Shown here one piece after another: positions 1 to 11,368 of a DNA stretch of 64,000 bases. How positions within the stretch are numbered: position 1 is the stretch's first letter; every line of letters begins with the position of its first letter. Origin of the DNA: Armatimonadota bacterium (GTDB lineage: Bacteria > Sysuimicrobiota > Sysuimicrobiia > Sysuimicrobiales > Humicultoraceae); NCBI GenBank assembly GCA_037443565.1, contig JBBIOB010000001.1:97774-161773 (forward strand), given 5' to 3'. The translations under genes were made by a program, and so were the position numbers. The notes beneath the pieces are model-generated. The model made no database searches. It was given only the letters and a program-made list of their open reading frames with translations, and was not told the DNA's origin.

Positions 1-1
1 C

Positions 2-394
2 TCGGTGACGCTCGGGCTGGCGTCGTCGGCGCTGATCGCGCGCATGACCCGGAGCAGTCTGCTCGAAGTGCTGGGAGCGGACTACGTCCGGACCGCGCAC
101 GCGAAGGGCCTGGCGGAGCGTGTCGTTCTGCTGCGCCACGCGTTGCGCAACGCGCTCATCCCGGTGGTGACGGTCATCGGGTTGCAGCTCGGCGGACTGC
201 TCGGCGGTGCTGTGCTGACCGAGACGGTGTTCGCCTGGCCCGGCCTGGGCCGTCTGGCGGTGAACGCCATCTACAGCCGCGACATCCCGCTCGTGCAGGG
301 GACGATCCTCTTCACCGCGGTCGCCTTCGTGGTCATCAACCTGGCGGTCGACGCCCTCTACGCCCTGCTCGACCCGAGGGTGCGATATGACTAG
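2..394 (+). CDS. ABC transporter permease, C-terminal part (DppB/OppB-like); 5' end lies outside the window
   Basis: Open from the window edge. Translation shows the typical ABC inner-membrane permease tail (TETVFAWPGLGRL...ALLDPRVRY). It is followed by a second permease with ATGA start/stop overlap. Confidence 0.7.
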   Translation, partial: SVTLGLASSALIARMTRSSLLEVLGADYVRTAHAKGLAERVVLLRHALRNALIPVVTVIGLQLGGLLGGAVLTETVFAWPGLGRLAVNAIYSRDIPLVQGTILFTAVAFVVINLAVDALYALLDPRVRYD

Positions 395-1238
395 CGCAGG
401 CCGGCGGCGCCTGCGGCACCTGGCACGCCACCGGCCCGCGCTCGTCGGCCTGCTCGTGCTGCTGGCGACGGCCGCGGCCGCGACGCTGGCGCCCTGGGTC
501 TCGCCCTACGACCCCAACGTCCAGGTGTGGGAGCAGGCGCTCCAGGCGCCGTCGGGCCGCCACTGGCTCGGCACCGACGAGTTCGGCCGCGACGTGCTCA
601 CCCGTATCGTCTTCGGTGGCCGGATCTCGCTGGTGGTCGGTTTCCTGGCTGTGACCATCGCGGCCGGGGTGGGCGTGCCGCTCGGGCTCGTCAGCGGCTA
701 CGCCGGCGGCCGCACCGACGCCGTCATCATGCGGATCATGGACGTGCTGCTGGCGTTCCCGGCGATCCTGCTCGCGCTGGCCATCGTCGGTGCGCTGGGG
801 CCCGGCGTGCGGAACGCCATCATCGCCGTGGGGGTCGTCGCGATCCCGGCGTTTGCCCGCGTGGTGCGCGGGGCAACGCTGGTCGTGCGCGCCCAGGAGT
901 ACGTCGACGCGGCGCGCGCGCTGGGCGGCCGCGCGCCCCGCATCCTGGCCCGGCACGTCCTGCCCAACGCCGCGGCGCCGGTGATCGTGCAGGCGACGCT
1001 GGGGGTGGGCACGGCGATCCTGTCGTCGGCAGGACTCTCGTTCCTTGGATTGGGCGCGCAGCCGCCGACACCCGACTGGGGCGGGATGCTGGCCAGTGGC
1101 CGCGAATTCATGCTGCAGGCCTGGTGGATCGCGACGTTTCCGGGACTGGCGATCATGGTGACGGTGCTTGGGTTCAACCTGGTGGGCGACGCGCTGCGGG
1201 ACCTGCTCGATCCGCGGCTGCGGCCGCCGGGAGTGTGA
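387..1238 (+). CDS. ABC transporter permease (DppC/OppC-like)
   Basis: 283 aa. Has the N-terminal TM helix, the EAA-like loop region and the typical DppC C-terminus (NLVGDALRDLLDPRL). The ATG at 387 overlaps the upstream stop; the stop overlaps the next start (ATGA at 1235-1238). Confidence 0.75.
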   Translation: MTSAGRRRLRHLARHRPALVGLLVLLATAAAATLAPWVSPYDPNVQVWEQALQAPSGRHWLGTDEFGRDVLTRIVFGGRISLVVGFLAVTIAAGVGVPLGLVSGYAGGRTDAVIMRIMDVLLAFPAILLALAIVGALGPGVRNAIIAVGVVAIPAFARVVRGATLVVRAQEYVDAARALGGRAPRILARHVLPNAAAPVIVQATLGVGTAILSSAGLSFLGLGAQPPTPDWGGMLASGREFMLQAWWIATFPGLAIMVTVLGFNLVGDALRDLLDPRLRPPGV

Positions 1239-1969
1239 TGGGGAGGGCCATCATGACCGAAGCGCTCTACGTCCGAGACAGCTACCTCAAGGAATTCAAC
1301 GCCACTGTCACCGCCGTCGACGGGCAGGCGGTAGCGCTCGACCGCACGGCCTTCTACCCTGGCGGCGGCGGGTTGCCGCACGACACCGGGCGGCTCACCT
1401 GGGTGGGCAGGGAAGGCCGCGTCGTCGAGGTGAAGCGCGACGGTACCACGATCTGGCACGTCCTCGACGGCCCGGCCCCGGCCGACGGCACCGCGGTGCA
1501 CGGGACGATCGACTGGGACCGCCGGTACGGCGTCATGCGCCATCATACGGCGCTGCACGTGCTGGTCGGCGCGGTCTACAGGCTCTTCGGCGCGCTTGTC
1601 ACCGGCGGCCAGATCCATTCCGACCGCGCACGCATGGACTTCTCGCTCGCGGACCTCAGCAAGGAGCGCGTCGCCGCGATCGAGGCCGAGGCCAATCGGG
1701 TGATCGCCGAGGGGCACCGGGTGCTGGTCCGATTCGTCTCGCGCGAGGAGTACGAGCGTTCGGATCTTACCCGGCTGGCGAAGAACCTGCTGCCGCCCGA
1801 TATCACCGAGGTCCGCGTGGTCGAGATCGAGGGGTACGACGCGCAGGCCGACGGCGGCACGCATGTGGTCAGCACGGCAGAGATCGGCCGGCTGCGGGTG
1901 ACCAAGACCGAGAACAAGGGAAAGACGAACCGCAGGCTCGAGATCGCGCTAGAGAATCCAGGGGAGTAG
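1238..1969 (+). CDS. AlaX-like alanyl-tRNA editing protein (tRNA synthetase class II SAD domain)
   Basis: 243 aa starting at the ATG at 1238, in frame with the long spurious ORF 527..1969. HxxxH motif (RHHTALHVL) and GGTHV motif are present, but Asp replaces the usual Cys of CGGTH. An alternative start is the ATG at 1253. Confidence 0.55.
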   Translation: MGRAIMTEALYVRDSYLKEFNATVTAVDGQAVALDRTAFYPGGGGLPHDTGRLTWVGREGRVVEVKRDGTTIWHVLDGPAPADGTAVHGTIDWDRRYGVMRHHTALHVLVGAVYRLFGALVTGGQIHSDRARMDFSLADLSKERVAAIEAEANRVIAEGHRVLVRFVSREEYERSDLTRLAKNLLPPDITEVRVVEIEGYDAQADGGTHVVSTAEIGRLRVTKTENKGKTNRRLEIALENPGE

Positions 1970-2452
1970 GCGCCTGGTGCGCGCCCGGTAGCCGGCGTAC
2001 TCGGGGAACCGGGACTCGAGGTATCGCTCCTCGACCCGGGACTTGGCGGTTATGTAGGCGGCCAGGGCTCCGGCGAGGACCAGGTGCAGGGCGCTCGTCT
2101 TCCACAGCGCCCATCCGATCGCCGCGACGATCAGGCCGCCGTAGATCGGATGGCGCGCTCTCGCGTAGATGCCGCGTTGTACCAGAACGCCGTGCCGCCG
2201 CGGCTTCGGGAAAGCTGTGAGGTTTGGTCCCAGATCGAGGATGGCCCGCGCTGCCAGGCCGAGCCCGACGACGAGCAGCACCGTGCCGAGCCTGCCCCCC
2301 AGGGCGCCCCAGGGCGGCGGCCATGGCCATCTCGCGGGCGCGAATGCCAGGGCTGCCAGGAGGACACCCTGGCCGACGACCCACCACTCGCCGCGCGAGT
2401 TTCTCCACCAGGGGAGGCGGGGGTTGCTCATGCCTGACCTCATGGGGATCAC
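1949..2452 (-). CDS. Isoprenylcysteine carboxyl methyltransferase / phospholipid methyltransferase family membrane protein
   Basis: 167 aa. C-terminal RHPIYGG motif typical of the ICMT/PEMT family, several TM helices. The start may be an internal Met. Confidence 0.55.
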   Translation of the reverse strand: MIPMRSGMSNPRLPWWRNSRGEWWVVGQGVLLAALAFAPARWPWPPPWGALGGRLGTVLLVVGLGLAARAILDLGPNLTAFPKPRRHGVLVQRGIYARARHPIYGGLIVAAIGWALWKTSALHLVLAGALAAYITAKSRVEERYLESRFPEYAGYRARTRRLLPWIL

Positions 2453-2507
2453 AGGAAGAAACGCTCGGCCCCGGCGGGGGATTCCGCCGCGGCCTGGTCG
2501 TTCGCCG

Positions 2508-3638
2508 CTATCGCCGCGCCGGTTGCGGCTGCCGGCTCGCTCGGAACGCCTGGGTCACCATCCAGGCCACCACGCCGAGCCCGGCGACGAACAGGATCAG
2601 GAACAGCACCAGCGGGCTCCACTGGATGTTCAGCGGCGCGTCGGTCACGTCCACGAACCGCCGCAGTTCCGCGTTCTGCACGACCTGCCGGCTGATTCCG
2701 TTCAACGCGAGGACGGCGATCTGCGCCAGGGCGGTCATCAGCGCCGTCGCCTGCGTGATCCGGCCCCGCTGCGCGGCGAGGACCAGCCAGACCAGGCCGG
2801 GGCTGAGCGCCGTCAGCGCTGTCAGCACGACCAGCGGAGCGTTGAACATCAGGGCGCGGACCTCGGGAATCCAGGTCCCGAAGACATACCACGAGCCCGC
2901 GAGCGCGAACCAGAGGATGCCCAGAGAGTACAGCCGCAGGGCAAAGCCCGAGACCCACCGCCGGTAGGCCTCGGTCTCCCGCACTGCGAACATGCCGGCG
3001 TCCACCGCCGCGTAGGCCGCGGTGGTCGTCAGCGCCAGCCCGAACACCATGAGCCAGCGCGACCAGATCGCGGGCTCGCCCAGGAGCACCGCCGTTCCGC
3101 GGACCGCGCCGGCGACACTCGTCCGCTCCCAGAGCCCAGGCCAGACGTCCACGTTCGCCATCAACACGAAGGCGTGGGTGAAGACGAAGCCCATGGCGAT
3201 GAACAGGATCGCGGCGGTCCATCCAGAGGCGCGGCGCAGCGGGGTGAGCTTTCCCTCGCGCAGCCCGATGGCGTACAGGTACACGCCGTAGTACGCGATG
3301 ATCAAGAGGCCGACGATCGAGACCCAGGGCCACGCCATCAGGATCGTCGCCGGGTAGAAGACGCGGTGGTAGGCCACTTGGAGAAACAGCAGGGGCACGA
3401 TCCCGAAGTTGATCCCCAGCGCGATGATGATCGGCATCTGGTTCATCAGGCGGTCTGAGAACCGCCGCGCGTGCTCGCCGCGCGACCGCATCAGCATGGC
3501 GATCAGGATCCCCGCAAACCACAGGTTCATCGGCACAAGATGCAGCACGAAGCCCAGGACCTTGAGTACGGCCATGAACCAGTACGGGGCGGGGTATCCC
3601 AGCGGGCCCGGTGGCGCCAGCAGCTGGGTTACGTCCAT
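2508..3638 (-). CDS. Polytopic membrane protein of unknown function (possible partner subunit of the downstream bd-like oxidase)
   Basis: 376 aa, about 10 hydrophobic helices, no recognisable catalytic motif. It is co-directional with and 30 bp downstream of the CydA-like gene. Confidence 0.4.
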   Translation of the reverse strand: MDVTQLLAPPGPLGYPAPYWFMAVLKVLGFVLHLVPMNLWFAGILIAMLMRSRGEHARRFSDRLMNQMPIIIALGINFGIVPLLFLQVAYHRVFYPATILMAWPWVSIVGLLIIAYYGVYLYAIGLREGKLTPLRRASGWTAAILFIAMGFVFTHAFVLMANVDVWPGLWERTSVAGAVRGTAVLLGEPAIWSRWLMVFGLALTTTAAYAAVDAGMFAVRETEAYRRWVSGFALRLYSLGILWFALAGSWYVFGTWIPEVRALMFNAPLVVLTALTALSPGLVWLVLAAQRGRITQATALMTALAQIAVLALNGISRQVVQNAELRRFVDVTDAPLNIQWSPLVLFLILFVAGLGVVAWMVTQAFRASRQPQPARR

Positions 3639-3668
3639 GGCGGGCTCCTCCTCGGTCTGCTCATGCGG

Positions 3669-5045
3669 TCATCGGCCGAGCTCGGGCTCCATGCCCCGCG
3701 GCCGCGGGTGGGCGATCGAGGCCAGGTACCGGGCGAGGGCATCGGCCTCCTCGGGGGTACCCACCCAGGGCGGCATGAAGAACGTGGCTTCGTTGAGGTG
3801 GGCGAGCACGCTGCGGATGAGCTCGGGGGTCCAGCCCCGCGTGAGGTGGCTCACCGCCGAATAGCCCACGCGCGTGGCGTGGCAGTTGTTGCACTGGAAC
3901 TTGAAGATCGCCTCGCCGACGCGGCGCTGGTCGTCTTCGGGCAGCGCCGCGAGCCGGTCGGCCGCGACCTTTCCATCCTGCATCACCTGGGGGTACCGCG
4001 AAGCCACCCAGGCCTTCGTCCAGACCCCCGACTCCAGGAAGCCCCGCTGGTGGACGTCGCGCACCTCGTCCACGAGGAGCTGGTTGCCCATGACCACGTT
4101 GTAGACGATGTACGGCTTGCGCACCGCCTCGCGGATGAACTCGCCGGTCGAGAAGGCGGCCAGCCCGAACGCGAAGAGCAGGATCGCGAACCCCGGCGAC
4201 AGCCAGCCGGGGTGCCGGTACGGGCCGAAGTAGAGCATTACGAAGACCGCGATGGTGATGGCGAAGATGAGTACCATCATCACGTTCAGCGCCGCGGCCG
4301 CGGCCAGTGCCGCCCTCGCTGACTCCGGGAGGAACGCGTACCAGGTCAGGCCGCCCAGGACGATCAACACCGCGCCCAGCAGGGCCGGCCTGGCCGATCG
4401 CGCCGCGATGAGGTCGCGCAGCGCCGCCTCCTTCACCTTGAACGAGGCGTGCAGGTACACGTACAGCGACGCGAGCAGGAGCGCGCCGCCGGTCCTGGCC
4501 AGCGTCTGCGGCACGAACTGCGGGTTGAGAAACCCGGTCCAAAACGTCCGGTGCTCGGGCCAGGCGCCGGGGTGCAGCATGAACGCCGTGATGCCAGTGA
4601 TCAGGACCAGGCTCATCCACGCCGACCCCGCGTAGATCCAGCCGATGGTCGTGTGGATCTTCGGCGCGAGCCGGCCCCAGTAGTAGTAGAAGATGAACGC
4701 CGAGACGATCTCCAGCACGAAGAACACGTACTCCATCGCCCAGCCGAAGACGAAGGTGTGGATCAGGGTCTCAGTCGCCAGCGGGGAGGCCAGCCCGATC
4801 GTCCACCAGATGCCGACGCCCGTGATGGCGCCGAAGACCACGGTCAGCAGGATGAAGAACCAGGCATGCCCGCGCAGGTAGTCGAGATAGGCGCGGTTCT
4901 TGGTCCGGTAGGCGTACTGTGTCTCAAACGCGAGAAACAGGCCGCCGCCGACCGCGTAGTGTGCCACCAGCACGTGGACGACCGCAATGCCGGCGATGAG
5001 CATCGGCGCGGTGAGATAGGGCACATACCACCAGGGGTAGTGCAT
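3669..5045 (-). CDS. Cytochrome bd ubiquinol oxidase subunit I (CydA) homolog fused to a C-terminal monoheme cytochrome c domain
   Basis: 458 aa. The N-terminal 300 aa align by eye to CydA: HYAVGGGLFLAFETQY, TGVGIWWTIG, GWAMEYVFFVLEIVSAFIFYYYWGRL, and KIH at the CydA His186 position. The C-terminal soluble domain carries CNNCHA (a CXXCH heme c site). Confidence 0.55.
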   Translation of the reverse strand: MHYPWWYVPYLTAPMLIAGIAVVHVLVAHYAVGGGLFLAFETQYAYRTKNRAYLDYLRGHAWFFILLTVVFGAITGVGIWWTIGLASPLATETLIHTFVFGWAMEYVFFVLEIVSAFIFYYYWGRLAPKIHTTIGWIYAGSAWMSLVLITGITAFMLHPGAWPEHRTFWTGFLNPQFVPQTLARTGGALLLASLYVYLHASFKVKEAALRDLIAARSARPALLGAVLIVLGGLTWYAFLPESARAALAAAAALNVMMVLIFAITIAVFVMLYFGPYRHPGWLSPGFAILLFAFGLAAFSTGEFIREAVRKPYIVYNVVMGNQLLVDEVRDVHQRGFLESGVWTKAWVASRYPQVMQDGKVAADRLAALPEDDQRRVGEAIFKFQCNNCHATRVGYSAVSHLTRGWTPELIRSVLAHLNEATFFMPPWVGTPEEADALARYLASIAHPRPRGMEPELGR

Positions 5046-5165
5046 GGATCCCCCTCCGTCCCGGGGCTTTGCCCGTAGGATGCCACATCGGGGACCAGGA
5101 CCGCATCAGGTGGCCACCGGAGCAAGGGCAGGGCGGGCCGCCGGGAGCGCGAACTCCCTGACGCA

Positions 5166-5789
5166 GTGAGTCTCGCAGCCTTCTTCGTGCGCGGGCTGGT
5201 GATCGGATTCGCCATTGCGGCGCCCGTCGGCCCCATCGGGATCCTCTGCATCCGGCGGACCCTGGCCCACGGCCGGCTGGCCGGCTTCGTCTCGGGCCTG
5301 GGCGCGGCGACCGCCGACGCGGCCTACGGCGCGGTCTCCGGCTTCGGGCTGACGTTCGTCGCGGGATTCCTGATCGGTCAGCAAGACTGGCTGCGTCTTG
5401 TCGGCGGCGCATTCCTGCTCTATCTGGGCGTGCGGACCTTCGTCGCGCGGCCCACAGACCGATCGGCCGATGCGCAGGGCACCGGCCTGCTCGGCGCATA
5501 CGCCTCGACGCTGGCCTTGACCCTGACCAACCCCATGACGATCCTGTCATTCGCGGCGATCTTCGCCGGCCTTGGCCTGGCCGGCGCCGCGGGCAACTAC
5601 GCGTCGGCCAGCACGCTCGTGCTGGGCGTGTTTCTCGGCTCGGCGGCCTGGTGGTTCATCCTGAGCGCGGGCGCCGGCGCCGTGCGAGAGAGGATGACCC
5701 CTGCGGGGTTGCGGTGGGTGAACCGCGCCTCAGGCGCCATCATCGCGGGGTTCGGCCTGCTCGCGCTCGGGGGCCTCCTGCGCCCATGA
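5166..5789 (+). CDS. LysE/RhtB family amino-acid exporter
   Basis: 207 aa, six TM helices, N-terminal motif (FAIAAPVGPIG...RRTL) typical of LysE-type translocators. Confidence 0.75.
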   Translation: MSLAAFFVRGLVIGFAIAAPVGPIGILCIRRTLAHGRLAGFVSGLGAATADAAYGAVSGFGLTFVAGFLIGQQDWLRLVGGAFLLYLGVRTFVARPTDRSADAQGTGLLGAYASTLALTLTNPMTILSFAAIFAGLGLAGAAGNYASASTLVLGVFLGSAAWWFILSAGAGAVRERMTPAGLRWVNRASGAIIAGFGLLALGGLLRP

Positions 5790-5816
5790 TAGAGGGCAGC
5801 CGGTGGAGTAGCGGCG

Positions 5817-6719
5817 ATGACGATTGACGAGATCATCAACCGCATGGGCTGGGATCGACGCGATGATCTCCGCGTCGAGATGCTCCCCGGCGGTATCACC
5901 AACCTGAACTATCGGGTAGACGTGGGCGATGAGGCATATGTCGTCCGCATCCCCGGACAAGATAGCGAGCGGCTCGGCATCGACCGGTCCCGCGAGCACG
6001 GGTGCACGGTCGCGGCGCATCGGGCCGGGGTCGCCCCGGCCGTCATCGCCTACTTCGAGGAAGACGGCGTGCTGGTGACCCGATTCCTCCCGGGCCGAGG
6101 GCTTGCCGAGGACGAGATGCGCCGGCCGCGCATGCTCACCCGCGTGGCCGAGACCATGCGCCGCTACCATGAGGGCCCCGAGTTCCCTGGCGTGTTCTCG
6201 CCCTTCCAGACGGTCCGGGACTACCTGGCATTCGCCGCGCCACGCGGGGCGCCGCTGCCGGAGCGCTTCGACTGGATGCTGGCGCAGGCCGACCGTCTGG
6301 AGTCGGTCATGGGCGCGCCGGATCGGCTCCGGCCGTGCCACAACGACCTGTTGCTGGCCAACTGGATCGACGACGGCGCGCGCCTCTGGATCGTCGACTG
6401 GGAGTACGCGGCGATGGGCGGCATCTTCTTCGATCTCGGGAACTTCGCGGTGCACCTTCAGCTCGGCGATGCTGAAGAGGAGACGTTGCTGCGGGCCTAC
6501 TTCGGGCGACCGCTGCCCGCGGCCGCCGCGCGCCTGAAGCTCATGAAGATCATCTCGGACCTGCGCGAGGCGATGTGGGCCATGGTGCAGGTGACGATCT
6601 CGACGCTCGACTACGACTTCGCGGCCTACGGCAGGAAGCACTTCGACCGGTACACGGCGCAGCTGGGGGACCCGCGTCTGGACAGATGGCTGCGCGAGGC
6701 AGGCCGCGGCCAGGACTGA
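5817..6719 (+). CDS. Choline/ethanolamine kinase-like phosphotransferase (APH/ChoK family), paralog 1
   Basis: 300 aa. Brenner motif HNDLLLANWI and IVDWEYA (Mg-binding D) match the choline-kinase/aminoglycoside-phosphotransferase fold. It is a paralog of 16468..17376. Confidence 0.7.
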   Translation: MTIDEIINRMGWDRRDDLRVEMLPGGITNLNYRVDVGDEAYVVRIPGQDSERLGIDRSREHGCTVAAHRAGVAPAVIAYFEEDGVLVTRFLPGRGLAEDEMRRPRMLTRVAETMRRYHEGPEFPGVFSPFQTVRDYLAFAAPRGAPLPERFDWMLAQADRLESVMGAPDRLRPCHNDLLLANWIDDGARLWIVDWEYAAMGGIFFDLGNFAVHLQLGDAEEETLLRAYFGRPLPAAAARLKLMKIISDLREAMWAMVQVTISTLDYDFAAYGRKHFDRYTAQLGDPRLDRWLREAGRGQD

Positions 6720-6787
6720 TTGGGAGCTCGACGGCCCTATCCGCGGTGAAGCCTTCCCCTCGGTCGGCCACGCTGGCCGGTGCATAG

Positions 6788-7485
6788 TCACCGTCGTGCG
6801 ACGGAGCGAGTGAACCGCCGGACCTGAGCGTTGAACTCCGCCGGGGCTTCCGCATTCGCCAGATGACCCACGCCGGGAATCACGACGAGTGCAGCAGCGG
6901 GAATTCCAGCACGGAGATCCTCGGCGACGCGGAGCGGGGACCGCTCATCCAGTTCTCCATACAACAGAAGGGTGGGAACCTGTATCCGGTGGAGCACGTC
7001 ACGTAAGTCCGCCTCAGCCATTGAATACGCCATCGCGCGATATCCTCCGGGATGGCTGCTGCCGGCATTGTCCGCCGCGATGGCCACGATCTCCTGAACC
7101 AACTCAGGAGCAGCCGCGCTGCTCAGGACCAAGCCAGGATGAGGGATGCTGGAATGTGGGAATGCCGTCGGTAGAATTCCAGCGCGAGCGAGCTGCCCCA
7201 CGACAAGCCGAGAACGTGGGCGTGCTCCACGTGCACAGCATTGAGCCACGCTGCCAACGCATCGGCGTAGTCGGCCAACCGCCAGCTCTCCGGGACATCG
7301 GAGGATTGGCCGCATCCCGGCGCGTCCCAGGCGAGCACTGTGAACTCGTTCGCAAGACCGTCCAGCTGGCGCCGCCATGCGCGGCTGTCCTCCATCCCAC
7401 CATGAAGGAGCACAAGAGTCGGCCCCTGGCCGGCCTGCCGGTAGGTGATCCGAAGACCAGAAACGCTCACCTCTCTCATGTCCAC
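6788..7485 (-). pseudogene. Alpha/beta hydrolase disrupted by a single frameshift (or sequencing error)
   Basis: ORF 7123..7485 encodes the N-terminal half (HGG oxyanion motif, GLSWGS nucleophile elbow). ORF 6788..7378, in another frame, encodes the C-terminal half (catalytic D and H region, LYGELDE...PGVGHL). The frame switch lies near 7110-7150, around LILAWS* versus LVLSSAAAPE. Confidence 0.55.
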
Positions 7486-7512
7486 ACCCCGGCGGCCTGG
7501 GTCAAATACATC

Positions 7513-7800
7513 CTAATCCCGCGCATCGAGCGCAGCGGCACGGATCGCCTCGAACTGCGCCTCCAGCTCCGCCGCGACGGTCTCGGCGACGTCCCCGGGC
7601 GCGCCGGCGCGTGCCAGCACCGGTCCGGTTCGCCAGCCATCCAGATAGGCATCGGTGCCGGTCAGGCCCTGCCGCATCGCCGCAGCGTCGATCAGCTCCT
7701 GGAAACGCGGGCCCAGGAGGCGGCGGACCCGTTCGGGTCCCTCGAAGGCCTCCACCTGCGAAGGAATAGTCTGCCAGTAGGTGATCCGGTACTGCGCCAT
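7513..7800 (-). CDS. Small hypothetical protein (95 aa)
   Basis: In-frame Met (MAQYRITYW...) within the longer six-frame ORF. It sits directly downstream of the ALDH gene on the same strand. No recognised motif. Confidence 0.3.
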   Translation of the reverse strand: MAQYRITYWQTIPSQVEAFEGPERVRRLLGPRFQELIDAAAMRQGLTGTDAYLDGWRTGPVLARAGAPGDVAETVAAELEAQFEAIRAAALDARD

Positions 7801-7814
7801 CGCGGCCGACGGTC

Positions 7815-9281
7815 TTAGAACGCGATGAAGACGTTCTTGACCTCCGTGTAGAGGTCCAGCGCGTGCATCCCCAGCTCGCGGCCGAACCCGCTCATCTTGA
7901 CCCCGCCGAACGGCGCCTCCTGATGGACGCTGTGGTTGCTGTTGATGCTGAGCACGCCGGTGTGGATGGCCTTCGCCATGCGCAGTGCCCGGCCGACGTC
8001 GCGGGTCCACACCGACCCCGACAGGCCGTAGGGCGAGTCGTTGGCCATGCGGACCGCGTCGGCTTCATCGTCGAAGGGGATCAGGCAGGCTACCGGTCCG
8101 AAGATCTCTTCCTGCGCCACCTGCATCTCGTTGCGCACGCCGGCCAGCACCGTGGGGAGCAGGAAGGCGCCGGCGGCCAGCCGCGGATCATCGGGCGGCG
8201 CGCCGCCGAAGACGACCTCCGCGCCCTCATCCCGGCCGATGGCGACATAGCGCAGGATATGCTCACGCTGGCGGCCGGAGACGACCGGGCCCATCTCCGT
8301 GGCCCCGTCCATGGGATCGCCGACGCGGAGCCGGCGGGCCGCCTCGGTGAACAGGTGGGTGAAGTGCTCGTAGACCGGCCGCTGGACGAAGACCCGGCTC
8401 CGCGCGCAGCAGTCCTGTCCCGCGTTACCGTAGACCGCGCCGACCCCGCTCTGCGCCGCGCGCTCCAGGTCGGCGTCGGCGAAGATCACGTTCGGCGATT
8501 TGCCGCCCAGCTCCAGCGACACGCGTGTCATCCGATCGGCGGCCAGCTTCATGATCTGGATCCCGGTAGTCGTCTCGCCCGTCAGCGCCACCTTCCTGAC
8601 CGCCGGATGCGTGACGATCGCCGCGCCCACCGAGGCGCCCGGCCCAGTCACGACGTTGAGCACGCCCGGCGGCACGCCGGCCTCCAGCGCCAACGTCCCG
8701 AGCCGCAGGGCCGTCAGCGGCGTGTAGGACGCGGGCTTGAGGATGACGGTGTTCCCGGTCGCCAGCGCCGGCGCGACCTTCCACGAGGTGATGAGGAAGG
8801 GGAAGTTCCAGGGGACGATCAGCCCGACGACCCCGATCGGCTCGCGCAGCGTGAAGTCGAGCCCGCGGTCGGCCACAGGGATCGTGGCGCCGAAGACCTT
8901 GTTTGCGGCGCCCGCGTAGTATTCGAAGCATCCCGCGGCGGCCTCGACCTCCCCACGGGCGTCGCTGATGGTCTTGCCGCCCGAACGCACCTCGAGGGTG
9001 ACCAGTTCGTCGGCATGGGTTCGGATCGCGTCGGCCAGACGCAGGAGCACGCGGCCGCGCTCCGTGGCGCTCATCGCCGGCCAGGGGCCCCCATCGAAGG
9101 CGGCCCGCGCCGCCGTCGCGGCCCGGTCTACATCCTCCGGGCCCCCGCGCGGGACCTCGGCGATCACCTCGCCGTCGGCGGGGTTGACGACGTCGAACGT
9201 CTCGCCGCCCGCGGCGGGAACCTCCTCCCCCCCAATGCACATGCGGGCCTGCACGCGCTGTTCGGCCTGTCGTGGGTTCAT
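7815..9281 (-). CDS. NAD(P)-dependent aldehyde dehydrogenase
   Basis: 489 aa from the ATG at 9281 (MNPRQAE...). Motifs: VPWNFP, GNTVILKP, ELGGKSP, catalytic Cys in GQDCCA, EEIFGPV. The upstream part of the 815-aa six-frame ORF is non-coding read-through. Confidence 0.85.
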   Translation of the reverse strand: MNPRQAEQRVQARMCIGGEEVPAAGGETFDVVNPADGEVIAEVPRGGPEDVDRAATAARAAFDGGPWPAMSATERGRVLLRLADAIRTHADELVTLEVRSGGKTISDARGEVEAAAGCFEYYAGAANKVFGATIPVADRGLDFTLREPIGVVGLIVPWNFPFLITSWKVAPALATGNTVILKPASYTPLTALRLGTLALEAGVPPGVLNVVTGPGASVGAAIVTHPAVRKVALTGETTTGIQIMKLAADRMTRVSLELGGKSPNVIFADADLERAAQSGVGAVYGNAGQDCCARSRVFVQRPVYEHFTHLFTEAARRLRVGDPMDGATEMGPVVSGRQREHILRYVAIGRDEGAEVVFGGAPPDDPRLAAGAFLLPTVLAGVRNEMQVAQEEIFGPVACLIPFDDEADAVRMANDSPYGLSGSVWTRDVGRALRMAKAIHTGVLSINSNHSVHQEAPFGGVKMSGFGRELGMHALDLYTEVKNVFIAF

Positions 9282-9341
9282 GGGATCGCCTCCGGACGCA
9301 TCTGCACAGGATTTCCCTGCCTCGCGACGAACACCCTCCGC

Positions 9342-10205
9342 ATGCTGCTGCGATTCTGCGTCATCAACGGCTATCCCGCGAAGAACCGTGAGGTGCTGCT
9401 CGAGGCCGGCCACTGCAGCGCCGACCAGATGTACCTCTGGGTGTTCCGGAAGCTCCATCCCGACGCCCGGCTCGACGTGCTCTACCTCGCCGACCTCGAG
9501 GTGCCGGTACCCGATGACCGGTGGATCGAGAGGTACGACGCCTTCCTGTGGACGGGGTCCAACCTGACGATCTACGAGGACGATCCCCGCGTGATCCGTC
9601 AGATCGAGTTCTGCCGGCGAATCTTCGAGATCGGCCGGCCGCAGTGGGGGAGCTGCTGGGGTGTGCAGATGGCCGCGGTGGCCGCCGGCGGCGAGGTGCG
9701 CAAGAACCCGCGCGGCCGCGAGATGGCCTTCGCCCGCAGGATCCACCTGACGCCCGAAGGCCGTGCCCACCCGATGTACGACGGCAAGCCCGACGTCTTC
9801 GATGGGTTCATCTCCCACCTCGACGAGGTCACGCGGATTCCTGACGGCGGCGTGCTGCTGGCCACCAACGACCACACGCGCGTGCAGGCGCTTGAGGTCA
9901 GGTACAGGAACGGGACCTACTGGGCCACGCAGTACCATCCTGAGTACGACCTGCATCAGATGACCCGGCTGATCGTGGCCCGGGGCGAGGCGCTGATCAA
10001 GGAAGGCTTCTTCGCCGACCGGGCCGCCCTGGAGCATCGCGTGGCGCGGATGGAGGCGCTCGAGCGGGATCCGTCGCGCAAGGACCTGCGATGGGACCTG
10101 GCTATCGGTGACGACCTGCTGGACGAGCGCATCCGCTGGGTCGAGCTGCGAAACTGGCTGGAGAAGCTGGTGATCCCTGCCGCGCGGCGGTTGGAGCGCG
10201 TCTGA
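9342..10205 (+). CDS. Class I glutamine amidotransferase-like protein (PuuD/peptidase C26-like)
   Basis: 288 aa from the ATG at 9342. Nucleophile elbow GSCWGVQ and a His near the C-terminus (YHPEYD). The remainder of the 780-aa six-frame ORF is antisense to the ALDH gene and was rejected. Confidence 0.65.
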   Translation: MLLRFCVINGYPAKNREVLLEAGHCSADQMYLWVFRKLHPDARLDVLYLADLEVPVPDDRWIERYDAFLWTGSNLTIYEDDPRVIRQIEFCRRIFEIGRPQWGSCWGVQMAAVAAGGEVRKNPRGREMAFARRIHLTPEGRAHPMYDGKPDVFDGFISHLDEVTRIPDGGVLLATNDHTRVQALEVRYRNGTYWATQYHPEYDLHQMTRLIVARGEALIKEGFFADRAALEHRVARMEALERDPSRKDLRWDLAIGDDLLDERIRWVELRNWLEKLVIPAARRLERV

Positions 10206-10216
10206 CGCCAGGCGTG

Positions 10217-11368
10217 CTAGTCGGCCGGCAGCAGGTGCAGGACCTCCGGAAGCTCGACCCACACCCGCCGACCCCGAGGTAGCACCGCCGCGCGGGGATC
10301 TGGCAGGTCCACCAGGAGCTGCGAGGCGCTCAGCCGCACCACGTAGCGCACGATGGTGCCAAAGTACTCCGCGTCCTCAACGATGCCCTCCAGGGCCGAG
10401 GCTGGCCCTGCGCGTCGCGCCCCTGCCGCGGGGCCGTCAGCCGGTGCGGGAGCATCGGCGTCACGAATCCGCACCGCTTCCGGCCGCACCACCGCCAGCA
10501 CCCGCTGGCCCGTCTGCCAGGCCCGCCCGGTCCCGTGGACGTGCGCTTCGCCGTCAGGCAGGCGCAGCCGCAGCGTGCCGTCATCGACGGTGATCACTTC
10601 CGCCGGCAGCATGTTGACCTGTCCGACGAACCGGGCCACGAAGGGATCGGCCGGCCGCAGGTAGATCTCCTGCGGGGTCCCCACCTGGACCAGGCGGCCG
10701 TCGTGCATGACGGCCATGCGGTCGGAAATGCTCATGGCTTCCTGCTGGTCGTGGGTTACGAAGACCATGGTCAGATCGAGCTCGTCCTTGAGCCGGCGGA
10801 TCTCGGACCGCATCGCGATGCGCAGGTTGGCATCGAGGTTCGAGAGCGGCTCGTCCAGGAGCAGCACCCTGGGCCGCAGGACCAGCGCCCGGGCCAGCGC
10901 CACCCGCTGCTGCTGCCCGCCGGAGAGCTGATGGGGCCGGCGGCCTTCCAGCCCTTCGAGGCGGACGAGCCGGAGCGCATCGGCGACCCGCGCGCGGATC
11001 TCAGACGCAGGCCGCCGTCGCACCGAGAGGCCGTAGGCGACGTTCTCGAACACCGTCATGTGCGGGAACAGCGCGTAGTTCTGGAACACCATCGCGGTGG
11101 GGCGAAGGTTCGGCGGGACGCGGGTGATGTCGCGGTCCTCCAGGAGCACCGTCCCCTCGTCCGGCGTAGCGAAGCCGGCGATCACCCGCAGCAGCGTCGT
11201 CTTCCCACAGCCGCTCGGACCGATGAACGACGCGAGCTCACCGGCGGCAACAGACGCGGTCAGGCCGTCCACGGCGACCGTGGGGCCGAAGCGCTTGGTG
11301 ATCCCGCGGAGCTCCAGCGCGGGGCCGGGCGACCTCGGAGTCCGGGAATCGGGCGCGGATGGTATCAC
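10217..11368 (-). CDS. ABC transporter ATP-binding protein (PotA/FbpC family)
   Basis: Walker A GPSGCGKTT, signature LSGGQQQRV, Walker B LLLDEP, H-loop VTHD, plus a C-terminal TOBE-like regulatory domain. Confidence 0.85.
   Translation of the reverse strand: MIPSAPDSRTPRSPGPALELRGITKRFGPTVAVDGLTASVAAGELASFIGPSGCGKTTLLRVIAGFATPDEGTVLLEDRDITRVPPNLRPTAMVFQNYALFPHMTVFENVAYGLSVRRRPASEIRARVADALRLVRLEGLEGRRPHQLSGGQQQRVALARALVLRPRVLLLDEPLSNLDANLRIAMRSEIRRLKDELDLTMVFVTHDQQEAMSISDRMAVMHDGRLVQVGTPQEIYLRPADPFVARFVGQVNMLPAEVITVDDGTLRLRLPDGEAHVHGTGRAWQTGQRVLAVVRPEAVRIRDADAPAPADGPAAGARRAGPASALEGIVEDAEYFGTIVRYVVRLSASQLLVDLPDPRAAVLPRGRRVWVELPEVLHLLPAD

Follow-up and report, generated by a model that had tools for sequence, protein, structure and literature searches.

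A probable OR-C-type cytochrome bd operon that pairs a CydA-like subunit fused to cytochrome c with a very diverged bd-fold partner

Cytochrome bd oxidases are generally regarded as quinol oxidases without c-type haem. What, then, is encoded by a locus in which a CydA-like membrane protein runs on into a cytochrome c domain, and in which the gene that follows does not resemble cydB? Such a locus is found in a 64-kb stretch of DNA (hereafter the window) from an Armatimonadota bacterium (assembly GCA_037443565.1, contig JBBIOB010000001.1, positions 97,774 to 161,773), where it forms a two-gene operon on the minus strand. The upstream gene, open reading frame (ORF) A (3669-5045, minus strand), encodes a 458-residue protein with matches to PF01654 and PF13442, and the gene directly downstream, ORF B (2508-3638, minus strand), encodes a 376-residue protein with neither a cysteine nor a haem c motif. 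The two are separated by a 30-nt spacer (3639-3668, minus strand) that carries a GGAGGAG ribosome-binding site (Shine-Dalgarno) before the ATG of ORF B. The GC content of the window is 63-71%, and ORF A is the only one of its genes to contain CXXCH. The original prediction, made from the sequence alone, described a CydA-cytochrome c fusion accompanied by an unrelated membrane protein in place of CydB, likened the pair to the bd-like proteins of Nitrospira and proposed an alternative quinol-oxidising or electron-input complex. Both ORFs lie where it had put them, on the minus strand, and the fusion and the picture of a poorly characterised bd-like enzyme are borne out; the partner, the family and the role of quinol have to be read differently. 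The locus very probably encodes a member of the OR-C family of the cytochrome bd superfamily, with ORF B as a bd-fold second subunit.

The N-terminal part of ORF A is related to CydA in both sequence and fold, as had been supposed. It matches the Pfam model PF01654 (Cyt_bd_oxida_I) with 54.3 bits (cutoff 26.2) over residues 18-229, the match being confined to model positions 7-223 of 418, the N-terminal half. A profile of the family of ORF A homologs (the A family) matches CydA of G. thermodenitrificans (5doq_A) at 1.4e-7 over residues 8-194, and in hhalign the same family aligns with a canonical CydA reference profile at 96.6% (E 5e-10). The AlphaFold (AF2) model of ORF A (pLDDT 79.7) contains eight transmembrane (TM) helices followed by a helical periplasmic domain, and the top 19 matches of ORF A in a Foldseek search of the PDB are all cytochrome bd chains (best E 1e-6). 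The membrane domain (residues 1-318; 4092-5045, minus strand) is made up in the model of helices 13-47, 51-86, 88-121, 128-157, 177-203, 207-237, 241-276 and 284-318. The loop between TM6 and TM7 is only a few residues long in this model, leaving no Q-loop and no quinol site, and TM9 of canonical CydA is missing.

Which of the residues that hold the haems and the proton channel in CydA does this shortened domain retain? His24 (4974-4976, minus strand), aligned to H21 of 5doq, corresponds to the axial ligand of the active-site haem in E. coli CydA, H19, and is invariant down to 39% identity. Glu105 and Glu112 in TM3 (4710-4733, minus strand) correspond to E99 and E107, the proton-channel and haem-site glutamates, and are paired with E101 and E108 of 5doq_A; both are invariant, with six residues between them as in Geobacillus CydA and in qOR3 and OR-C. 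H131 aligns to CydA H126 and S145 to S140, and all five residues (H24, E105, E112, H131 and S145) are unchanged in A-type proteins of only 39-41% identity. The position of the b558 ligand H186 is occupied by Ala183, as judged by the motif register and by Table S6 of Murali, Gennis and Hemp (2021; bioRxiv 10.1101/2021.01.16.426971), where the reference has F183. No equivalent of M393, also a b558 ligand, was found in ORF A, TM7 being without a conserved Met or His. H199 was considered as a b558 ligand and rejected, since it is replaced by Thr in distant members and lies where TM5 ends on the cytoplasmic side. The earlier statement that the haem-ligand His positions are conserved therefore stands for H19, the sole canonical haem-ligand histidine retained in ORF A, and falls for H186. 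ORF A keeps the active-site core of CydA, a four-helix bundle, together with its proton-channel residues, and has lost the quinol site and b558 ligation.

A further conserved element lies at the periplasmic end of TM8, where E302-F-I-R305-E306-A-V-R309-K310-P311 (4113-4142, minus strand) is the putative counterpart of the CydA motif GWxxAExGRQPW, which holds E445. Residues E302, R305, E306 and R309-K310-P311 are invariant throughout the family, members at 39-41% identity included, and the resemblance suggests that E306 may be the equivalent of E445. The extreme N-terminus of ORF A, MHYPWW (residues 1-6; 5028-5045 of the window), predicted to be periplasmic, is also well conserved: M1, H2, Y3, P4 and W6 are invariant among homologs of at least 66% identity, and members at 39-41% identity have MNYP(I/F)W instead. 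The AF2 model has low confidence over residues 1-12. His2 is rejected as a universal ligand, being Asn in the distant members.

The C-terminus of ORF A is a monohaem cytochrome c, as had been read from its CNNCH motif, and is of class I type. The domain (residues 370-458; 3672-3938, minus strand) matches PF13442 (Cytochrome_CBB3) with 36.3 bits (cutoff 27) over residues 375-441; residues 378-446 of the A-family profile match cytochrome c-552 (7o38) and cytochrome c6 among PDB sequences, and its helices in the AF2 model follow the pattern of a small c-type cytochrome. The haem c attachment motif C385-N-N-C388-H389 (3879-3893, minus strand) is the sole CXXCH of the protein, and its two cysteines and histidine are invariant in the A family. 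Met424 of an M424-P-P motif (3768-3776, minus strand), invariant in distant members as well, is the probable sixth ligand of haem c, a role that we take over from class I cytochromes c in general. Like the monohaem cytochromes of that class (cbb3 subunit III-type PF13442, c6 and c-552), the domain has CXXCH after an N-terminal helix, a Met-Pro-Pro distal-ligand motif, a C-terminal helix and a length of about 90 residues. Unlike them, it extends the C-terminus of a bd-type membrane subunit, to which it is covalently joined, and is neither soluble nor part of a haem-copper oxidase.

On which side of the membrane does this domain lie? The even number of TM helices, the N-out topology of CydA-type proteins and the positive-inside rule (A-family averages of 3.8 Lys plus Arg in the outside loops vs 8.6 in the inside loops) together support a predicted N-out/C-out arrangement with the CXXCH domain in the periplasm. 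A cytoplasmic placement, in which haem could not be attached, is not borne out.

These features place ORF A in a family that has already been described. Within the cytochrome bd superfamily, members of OR-C have eight TM helices and a periplasmic haem c and lack both a Q-loop and ligands for haem b558 (Murali et al., 2021). ORF A likewise has eight TM helices and, in its C-terminal periplasmic part, a CXXCH; it lacks a Q-loop and a quinol site, and its residue at the H186 position is not His. For the OR-C1a reference, Table S6 of the same study gives H24, E105, E112, S145, H131, Y121, V77 and W80, with a non-His residue at 183 and no M393. The corresponding residues of ORF A are invariant and bear the very same numbers; position 119 is Phe in ORF A vs Tyr in the reference. 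Many monohaem OR-C1a proteins of about 440-490 residues from cultured bacteria are listed in Table S7, and Armatimonadota are OR-C-positive in Table S3 (Murali et al., 2021). Cultured carriers of OR-C1a include Chloracidobacterium, Hydrogenobacter, Thermocrinis, Lysinibacillus and Desulfovibrio vulgaris. Taken together, the features and the residue numbers in the published tables leave little doubt that the locus encodes an OR-C-type member of the superfamily. The fusion architecture is thus not new, and ORF A belongs to a known, bioinformatically defined family and not to a new kind of system. ORF A may also depart from the OR-C1a table in its E302/R305/E306/R309-K310-P311 motif, which suggests an E445-like residue that the table does not list. 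The Nitrospira-type proteins to which the pair had been likened form a sister family, OR-N, with 10-14 TM helices, no fused haem c, and petABD or separate cytochromes in the operon (Murali et al., 2021). ORF A differs from these in its eight TM helices and its fused haem c, and there are no pet-type or cytochrome genes adjacent to the A-B pair here.

Compared with canonical CydAB (qOR1-3; E. coli 6rko, G. thermodenitrificans 5doq), the locus shares a fold common to both subunits, the equivalents of H19, E99, E107, H126 and S140 in ORF A, and a two-subunit operon with subunit I first. It differs in that ORF A lacks the Q-loop, the H186/M393 ligation of b558 and TM9 and carries a fused cytochrome c, and in that its subunit II is nearer to CydA than to CydB (PF02322) and has an H19-like histidine.

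What kind of protein is this second subunit? By plain sequence it gives nothing away. ORF B has no match in Pfam or NCBIfam, and a hidden Markov model (HMM) of its family (the B family) finds nothing real among PDB sequences or in Pfam. To that extent the claim that ORF B has no visible similarity to CydB holds. It does not hold for fold or remote homology. The AlphaFold model of ORF B is confident (pLDDT 91.9, pTM 0.90) and has nine TM helices; its 17 best Foldseek matches in the PDB are all CydA or CydB chains (probability 1.00, TM score 0.55-0.66), and the matches beyond rank 17 are noise (TM score below 0.2). Because the model is confident and its matches are exclusively bd subunits, ORF B is assigned to the bd subunits.

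Profile comparisons point in the same direction. Shallow profiles of A and B (30 and 31 close homologs) gave only 0.7% in hhalign, a misleading result that is superseded by a deep B profile built from a 69-sequence alignment reaching down to 24% identity. This profile aligns co-linearly with the A family at 93.7% (E 1.9e-7, 285 columns), and at 96.3% (E 1.5e-9, 269 columns) in local hhalign once distant A members are added. The same B profile matches canonical CydA at 77.4% over 175 columns and canonical CydB at 45.1% (E 2e-4) over 114 columns; for calibration, the A family scores 1.2% against CydB, and CydA scores 0.5% against CydB. The CydA and CydB references, used instead of single E. coli sequences, are profiles of 11-13 sequences from plasmid cydAB operons (11 diverse operons for CydA), so that the ranking is indicative and not decisive. 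The B HMM also matches every A-family member co-linearly with 31-38 bits, and one distant B member has a precomputed PF01654 match. ORF B is thus a bd-fold subunit and a remote homolog of the ORF A membrane domain, a very diverged paralog of the CydA-type subunit, the closeness to CydA following from the ranking of the A family first, then CydA, then CydB. It was also observed that canonical CydA and canonical CydB are each detected by the B profile, whereas profiles of CydA and CydB of equal size miss each other; in studies of the origin of CydB from CydA, the B family may be a useful bridge between the sequences.

The hhalign register places His33 of ORF B (3540-3542, minus strand) on His24 of ORF A, hence on CydA H19. 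His33 is the one universally conserved histidine of the B family (69/69 diverse members). The B positions aligned to E105 and E112 of ORF A are hydrophobic, the proton-channel glutamates having been lost. Met197 (3048-3050, minus strand) aligns to CydA H186, the b558 ligand, when the B family is compared with CydA. Of the 69 members, 35 have His in this column and 15 have Leu or Ile; Met is found in 8, and among close relatives it is invariant. Two subfamilies can be told apart. The subfamily of this locus is marked by Asp213, Gln306 and R317-Q318-x-x-Q321, and its residue 197 is Met, Leu or Ile; in the other (about 25-29% identity), His197 is invariant and aligns to CydA H186, and the arginines are R317...R321. 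The His197-bearing subfamily suggests that some complexes may keep a b558-type haem site in subunit II. No CXXCH motif of their own is present in the 150 B-family representatives, and ORF B itself has no Cys at all.

How does such a partner compare with the second subunits already on record? The parallels are CydAA' (qOR4a/qOR4b, Caldivirga) and the a/b pairs of OR-N, in which subunit II is likewise a CydA paralog that keeps the H19 histidine and has lost the glutamates; in Table S6 this combination is seen in qOR4b and in OR-N3b, OR-N4b and OR-N5b (Murali et al., 2021). CydAA', unlike the present pair, is a quinol oxidase without haem c, and in OR-N the proteins have 10-14 TM helices, with electron-donor subunits that are separate. 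The members of these listed a/b pairs are 26-48% similar to each other, whereas the divergence between A and B is much deeper, B being without a detectable Pfam match. The sequences of the published classification were gathered by BLAST with CydA (Murali et al., 2021), and since B has no Pfam match, the B-type partner was probably missed by that collection. The B family is unannotated and differs from the published partner OR-C1b, which makes it a modest but useful refinement of the classification.

Both proteins are found widely and are strongly conserved. Word-indexed searches return more than 1,800 homologs of ORF A and more than 1,100 of ORF B, at about 60-70% identity across phyla that include Armatimonadota, Acidobacteriota, Chloroflexota, Bipolaricaulota, Planctomycetota, Zixibacteria, Tectomicrobia and others, numbers and identities that put the observation far beyond chance. 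A full HMM scan with the B profile yields 1,326 clusters at 50% identity; the family is annotated as 'hypothetical' everywhere and has no Pfam model. Among GTDB species representatives, relatives of A are encoded on 392 stretches. The nearest relatives (77-81% identity) belong to hot-spring metagenome-assembled genomes (MAGs) of 'Candidatus Fervidifonticultor', of which Fervidifonticultor tertius is placed in the literature among MAGs of Sysuimicrobiota (candidate phylum CSP1-3). Synteny was sampled at 80 GTDB loci and 6 others from at least 10 phyla. In every sampled locus where the contig leaves room, A is followed directly by a B-type gene in the same orientation, and the adjacency also holds for a B subgroup of 25% identity (Bacteroidota, Kryptonia). 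A-B is thus a conserved, self-contained module in which subunit II is obligately linked to subunit I.

Beyond the pair itself, the neighbours that recur without being conserved are sensor kinases, ABC transporters, NikR, thioredoxins and PFOR. In Bipolaricaulota A-B adjoins, at individual loci, an aa3 oxidase and haem A synthesis genes, and some loci lie near AhpC or thioredoxins. In two Zixibacteria loci (L002 and L003, positions 1-10921), A-B closes a cluster with two c-type cytochromes and a Rieske/cytochrome b complex; the cluster also holds a multihaem cytochrome, a NapC/NirT-type cytochrome, an Rrf2 regulator, a multicopper-oxidase-like protein and a redoxin. The Zixibacteria pair is flanked by two unannotated proteins, of 356 residues upstream and 131 residues downstream. 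In two Bacteroidota-like loci of the distant subgroup (L085 and L087), a PAS-domain histidine kinase and a sigma-54-dependent response regulator stand directly before A-B, with AhpC/redoxin near, and the kinase and regulator may form a dedicated regulatory module. One protein of 865 residues (P0268) was considered as an A-B fusion and set aside: it consists of partial A and B matches joined by what appears to be a translated intergenic spacer, and is probably a read-through or an assembly artefact. Two further sequences (P0279 and P0349) are incomplete fragments at contig ends in which the C-terminus of A continues in frame into the start of B.

What could such a complex do? The best overall explanation, which we consider likely, is that the OR-C-type A-B operon encodes a quinol-independent O2 reductase fed by a periplasmic donor. 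That the reaction is O2 reduction with a cytochrome c as the donor, in particular, has about an even chance; cytochrome c has been proposed as the donor of OR-C before (Murali et al., 2021). In the proposed scheme the fused haem c, which would functionally replace b558, would be reduced by a one-electron donor in the periplasm, most likely a cytochrome c that is either soluble or anchored in the membrane. Electrons would then pass to a pair of high-spin haems held by H24, E105 and possibly E306, where O2 would be reduced to water. Protons would be drawn from the cytoplasm through the E105/E112 channel, so that turnover, like that of canonical bd oxidases, would be electrogenic. ORF B would play the part of CydB, that of a structural partner stabilising the complex, and an extra haem may be bound through its His33. 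The loci that adjoin an aa3 oxidase with haem A genes, a Rieske/cytochrome b complex with c-type cytochromes, or AhpC or thioredoxins speak for such a function.

Several points weigh against this explanation. No purification, assay or biochemical study of any OR-C enzyme was found in the literature searched, and papers of 2024-2026 cite OR-C as a phylogenetic class only; O2 as the substrate, the haem types and the electron donor are things that we infer. A conserved electron-donor gene was sought among the neighbours of A-B and not found, nor is any other neighbour conserved. Many hosts are nominal anaerobes (Bipolaricaulota, Anaerolineae), in which the complex could scavenge O2 instead of conserving energy. 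The equivalence of E306 with E445 rests on motif similarity and on a weak, non-significant second HMM domain to 5doq_A, and Table S6 gives no E445 equivalent for OR-C1a (Murali et al., 2021). Finally, the published OR-C1b partner is a second CydA-like clade with eight TM helices and one or two CXXCH motifs (Murali et al., 2021), whereas ORF B has nine TM helices and no cysteine.

Do the haems need to reside in subunit I alone? It is possible, though we think it unlikely, that A-B represents an unrecognised OR-C architecture, a pseudo-symmetric enzyme in which both subunits bear haem and the b558-like or active-site-like haem site lost from subunit I survives in subunit II. The possibility arises because the B family keeps an H19-type histidine universally and an H186-type histidine in half of its members. 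If true, the electron path would be different, and the substrate possibly one other than O2; the B family may also be a sequence intermediate bearing on the origin of CydB from CydA.

Alternatively, and with a somewhat smaller probability, A-B may not be an O2 reductase at all, and may reduce or detoxify NO, H2O2 or nitrite, or serve as an electron conduit between haems on the cytoplasmic side and periplasmic cytochrome c. Many of the hosts are anaerobes or microaerophiles, the Zixibacteria pair lies near the Rrf2 regulator, the multicopper protein, the NapC/NirT-type cytochrome and the redoxin, H19-type histidines in both subunits would permit haems in both, and biochemical evidence is lacking for every OR-C enzyme. 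The residues of bd-type O2 chemistry and proton transfer (the equivalents of H19, E99, E107, H126 and S140), however, are invariant over deep divergence, some loci adjoin aerobic respiratory genes, and the neighbourhood is too variable to point to any specific alternative substrate.

The assignment of ORF B as a CydA-type paralog has a competitor of its own, less probable again, in which ORF B is an extremely diverged orthologue of canonical CydB. Its size and topology (376 residues, nine TM helices) match those of CydB (379 residues in E. coli), its Foldseek TM scores are similar for CydB and CydA chains, and its comparison with the CydB profile (45%, E 2e-4) is well above the 0.5% at which CydA and CydB detect each other. 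B nevertheless scores higher against the A family (269 columns) and CydA (175) than against CydB (114), with the small reference profiles making this order indicative only; in addition, the invariant His33 aligns to the H19 ligand of CydA, and half of the B family has a histidine aligned to H186. The view of the original prediction, that CydB has been replaced by an unrelated membrane protein in a quinol-oxidising or electron-input complex akin to the Nitrospira type, is hardly credible: the missing Pfam, NCBIfam and PDB-sequence matches and the non-significant shallow profile comparison are outweighed by a fold that matches bd subunits exclusively and by deep profiles that tie B to A at 96%, the Q-loop and b558 ligands needed for quinol oxidation are absent, and ORF A has the eight TM helices and fused haem c of OR-C and not the features of OR-N.

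Does the operon extend beyond ORF B? A gene for a PEMT/ICMT-family membrane methyltransferase-like protein of 167 residues (1949-2452, minus strand) starts 55 nt downstream of ORF B. It was considered as a third operon member and rejected, as it is syntenic only in the closest relatives, those of Ca. Fervidifonticultor, in which another gene sits between ORF B and the PEMT/ICMT-like gene. The only well-placed terminator-like hairpin (1926-1940) follows the methyltransferase-like gene, so that this gene may be co-transcribed with A-B in the window. Elsewhere in the window (7815-10262), long ORFs of 815 residues (minus strand) and 780 residues (plus strand) overlap. Read on the minus strand, the ORF resembles an aldehyde dehydrogenase whose N-terminal extension is implausibly long. 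Such a picture is typical of spurious ORF extension in DNA of roughly 70% GC, and the gene starts there call for care.

To a specialist who knows the 2021 classification, the locus will come as no surprise, yet the OR-C class to which it points is biochemically unexplored. OR-C would be a cytochrome c-dependent bd-type oxidase, a respiratory class that has so far not been purified, and a compact two-gene locus from a thermophilic, high-GC lineage (with relatives among hot-spring CSP1-3/Armatimonadota MAGs) is a reasonable candidate for expression and cryo-EM. For annotation, the gain is that a conserved downstream 'hypothetical' gene can be named as the cognate bd-fold subunit II. Pipelines that score PF01654 alone mislabel subunit I as 'cytochrome ubiquinol oxidase subunit I', and quinol-dependent, high-affinity O2 respiration is therefore predicted in many uncultured anaerobes whose enzyme has no quinol site.

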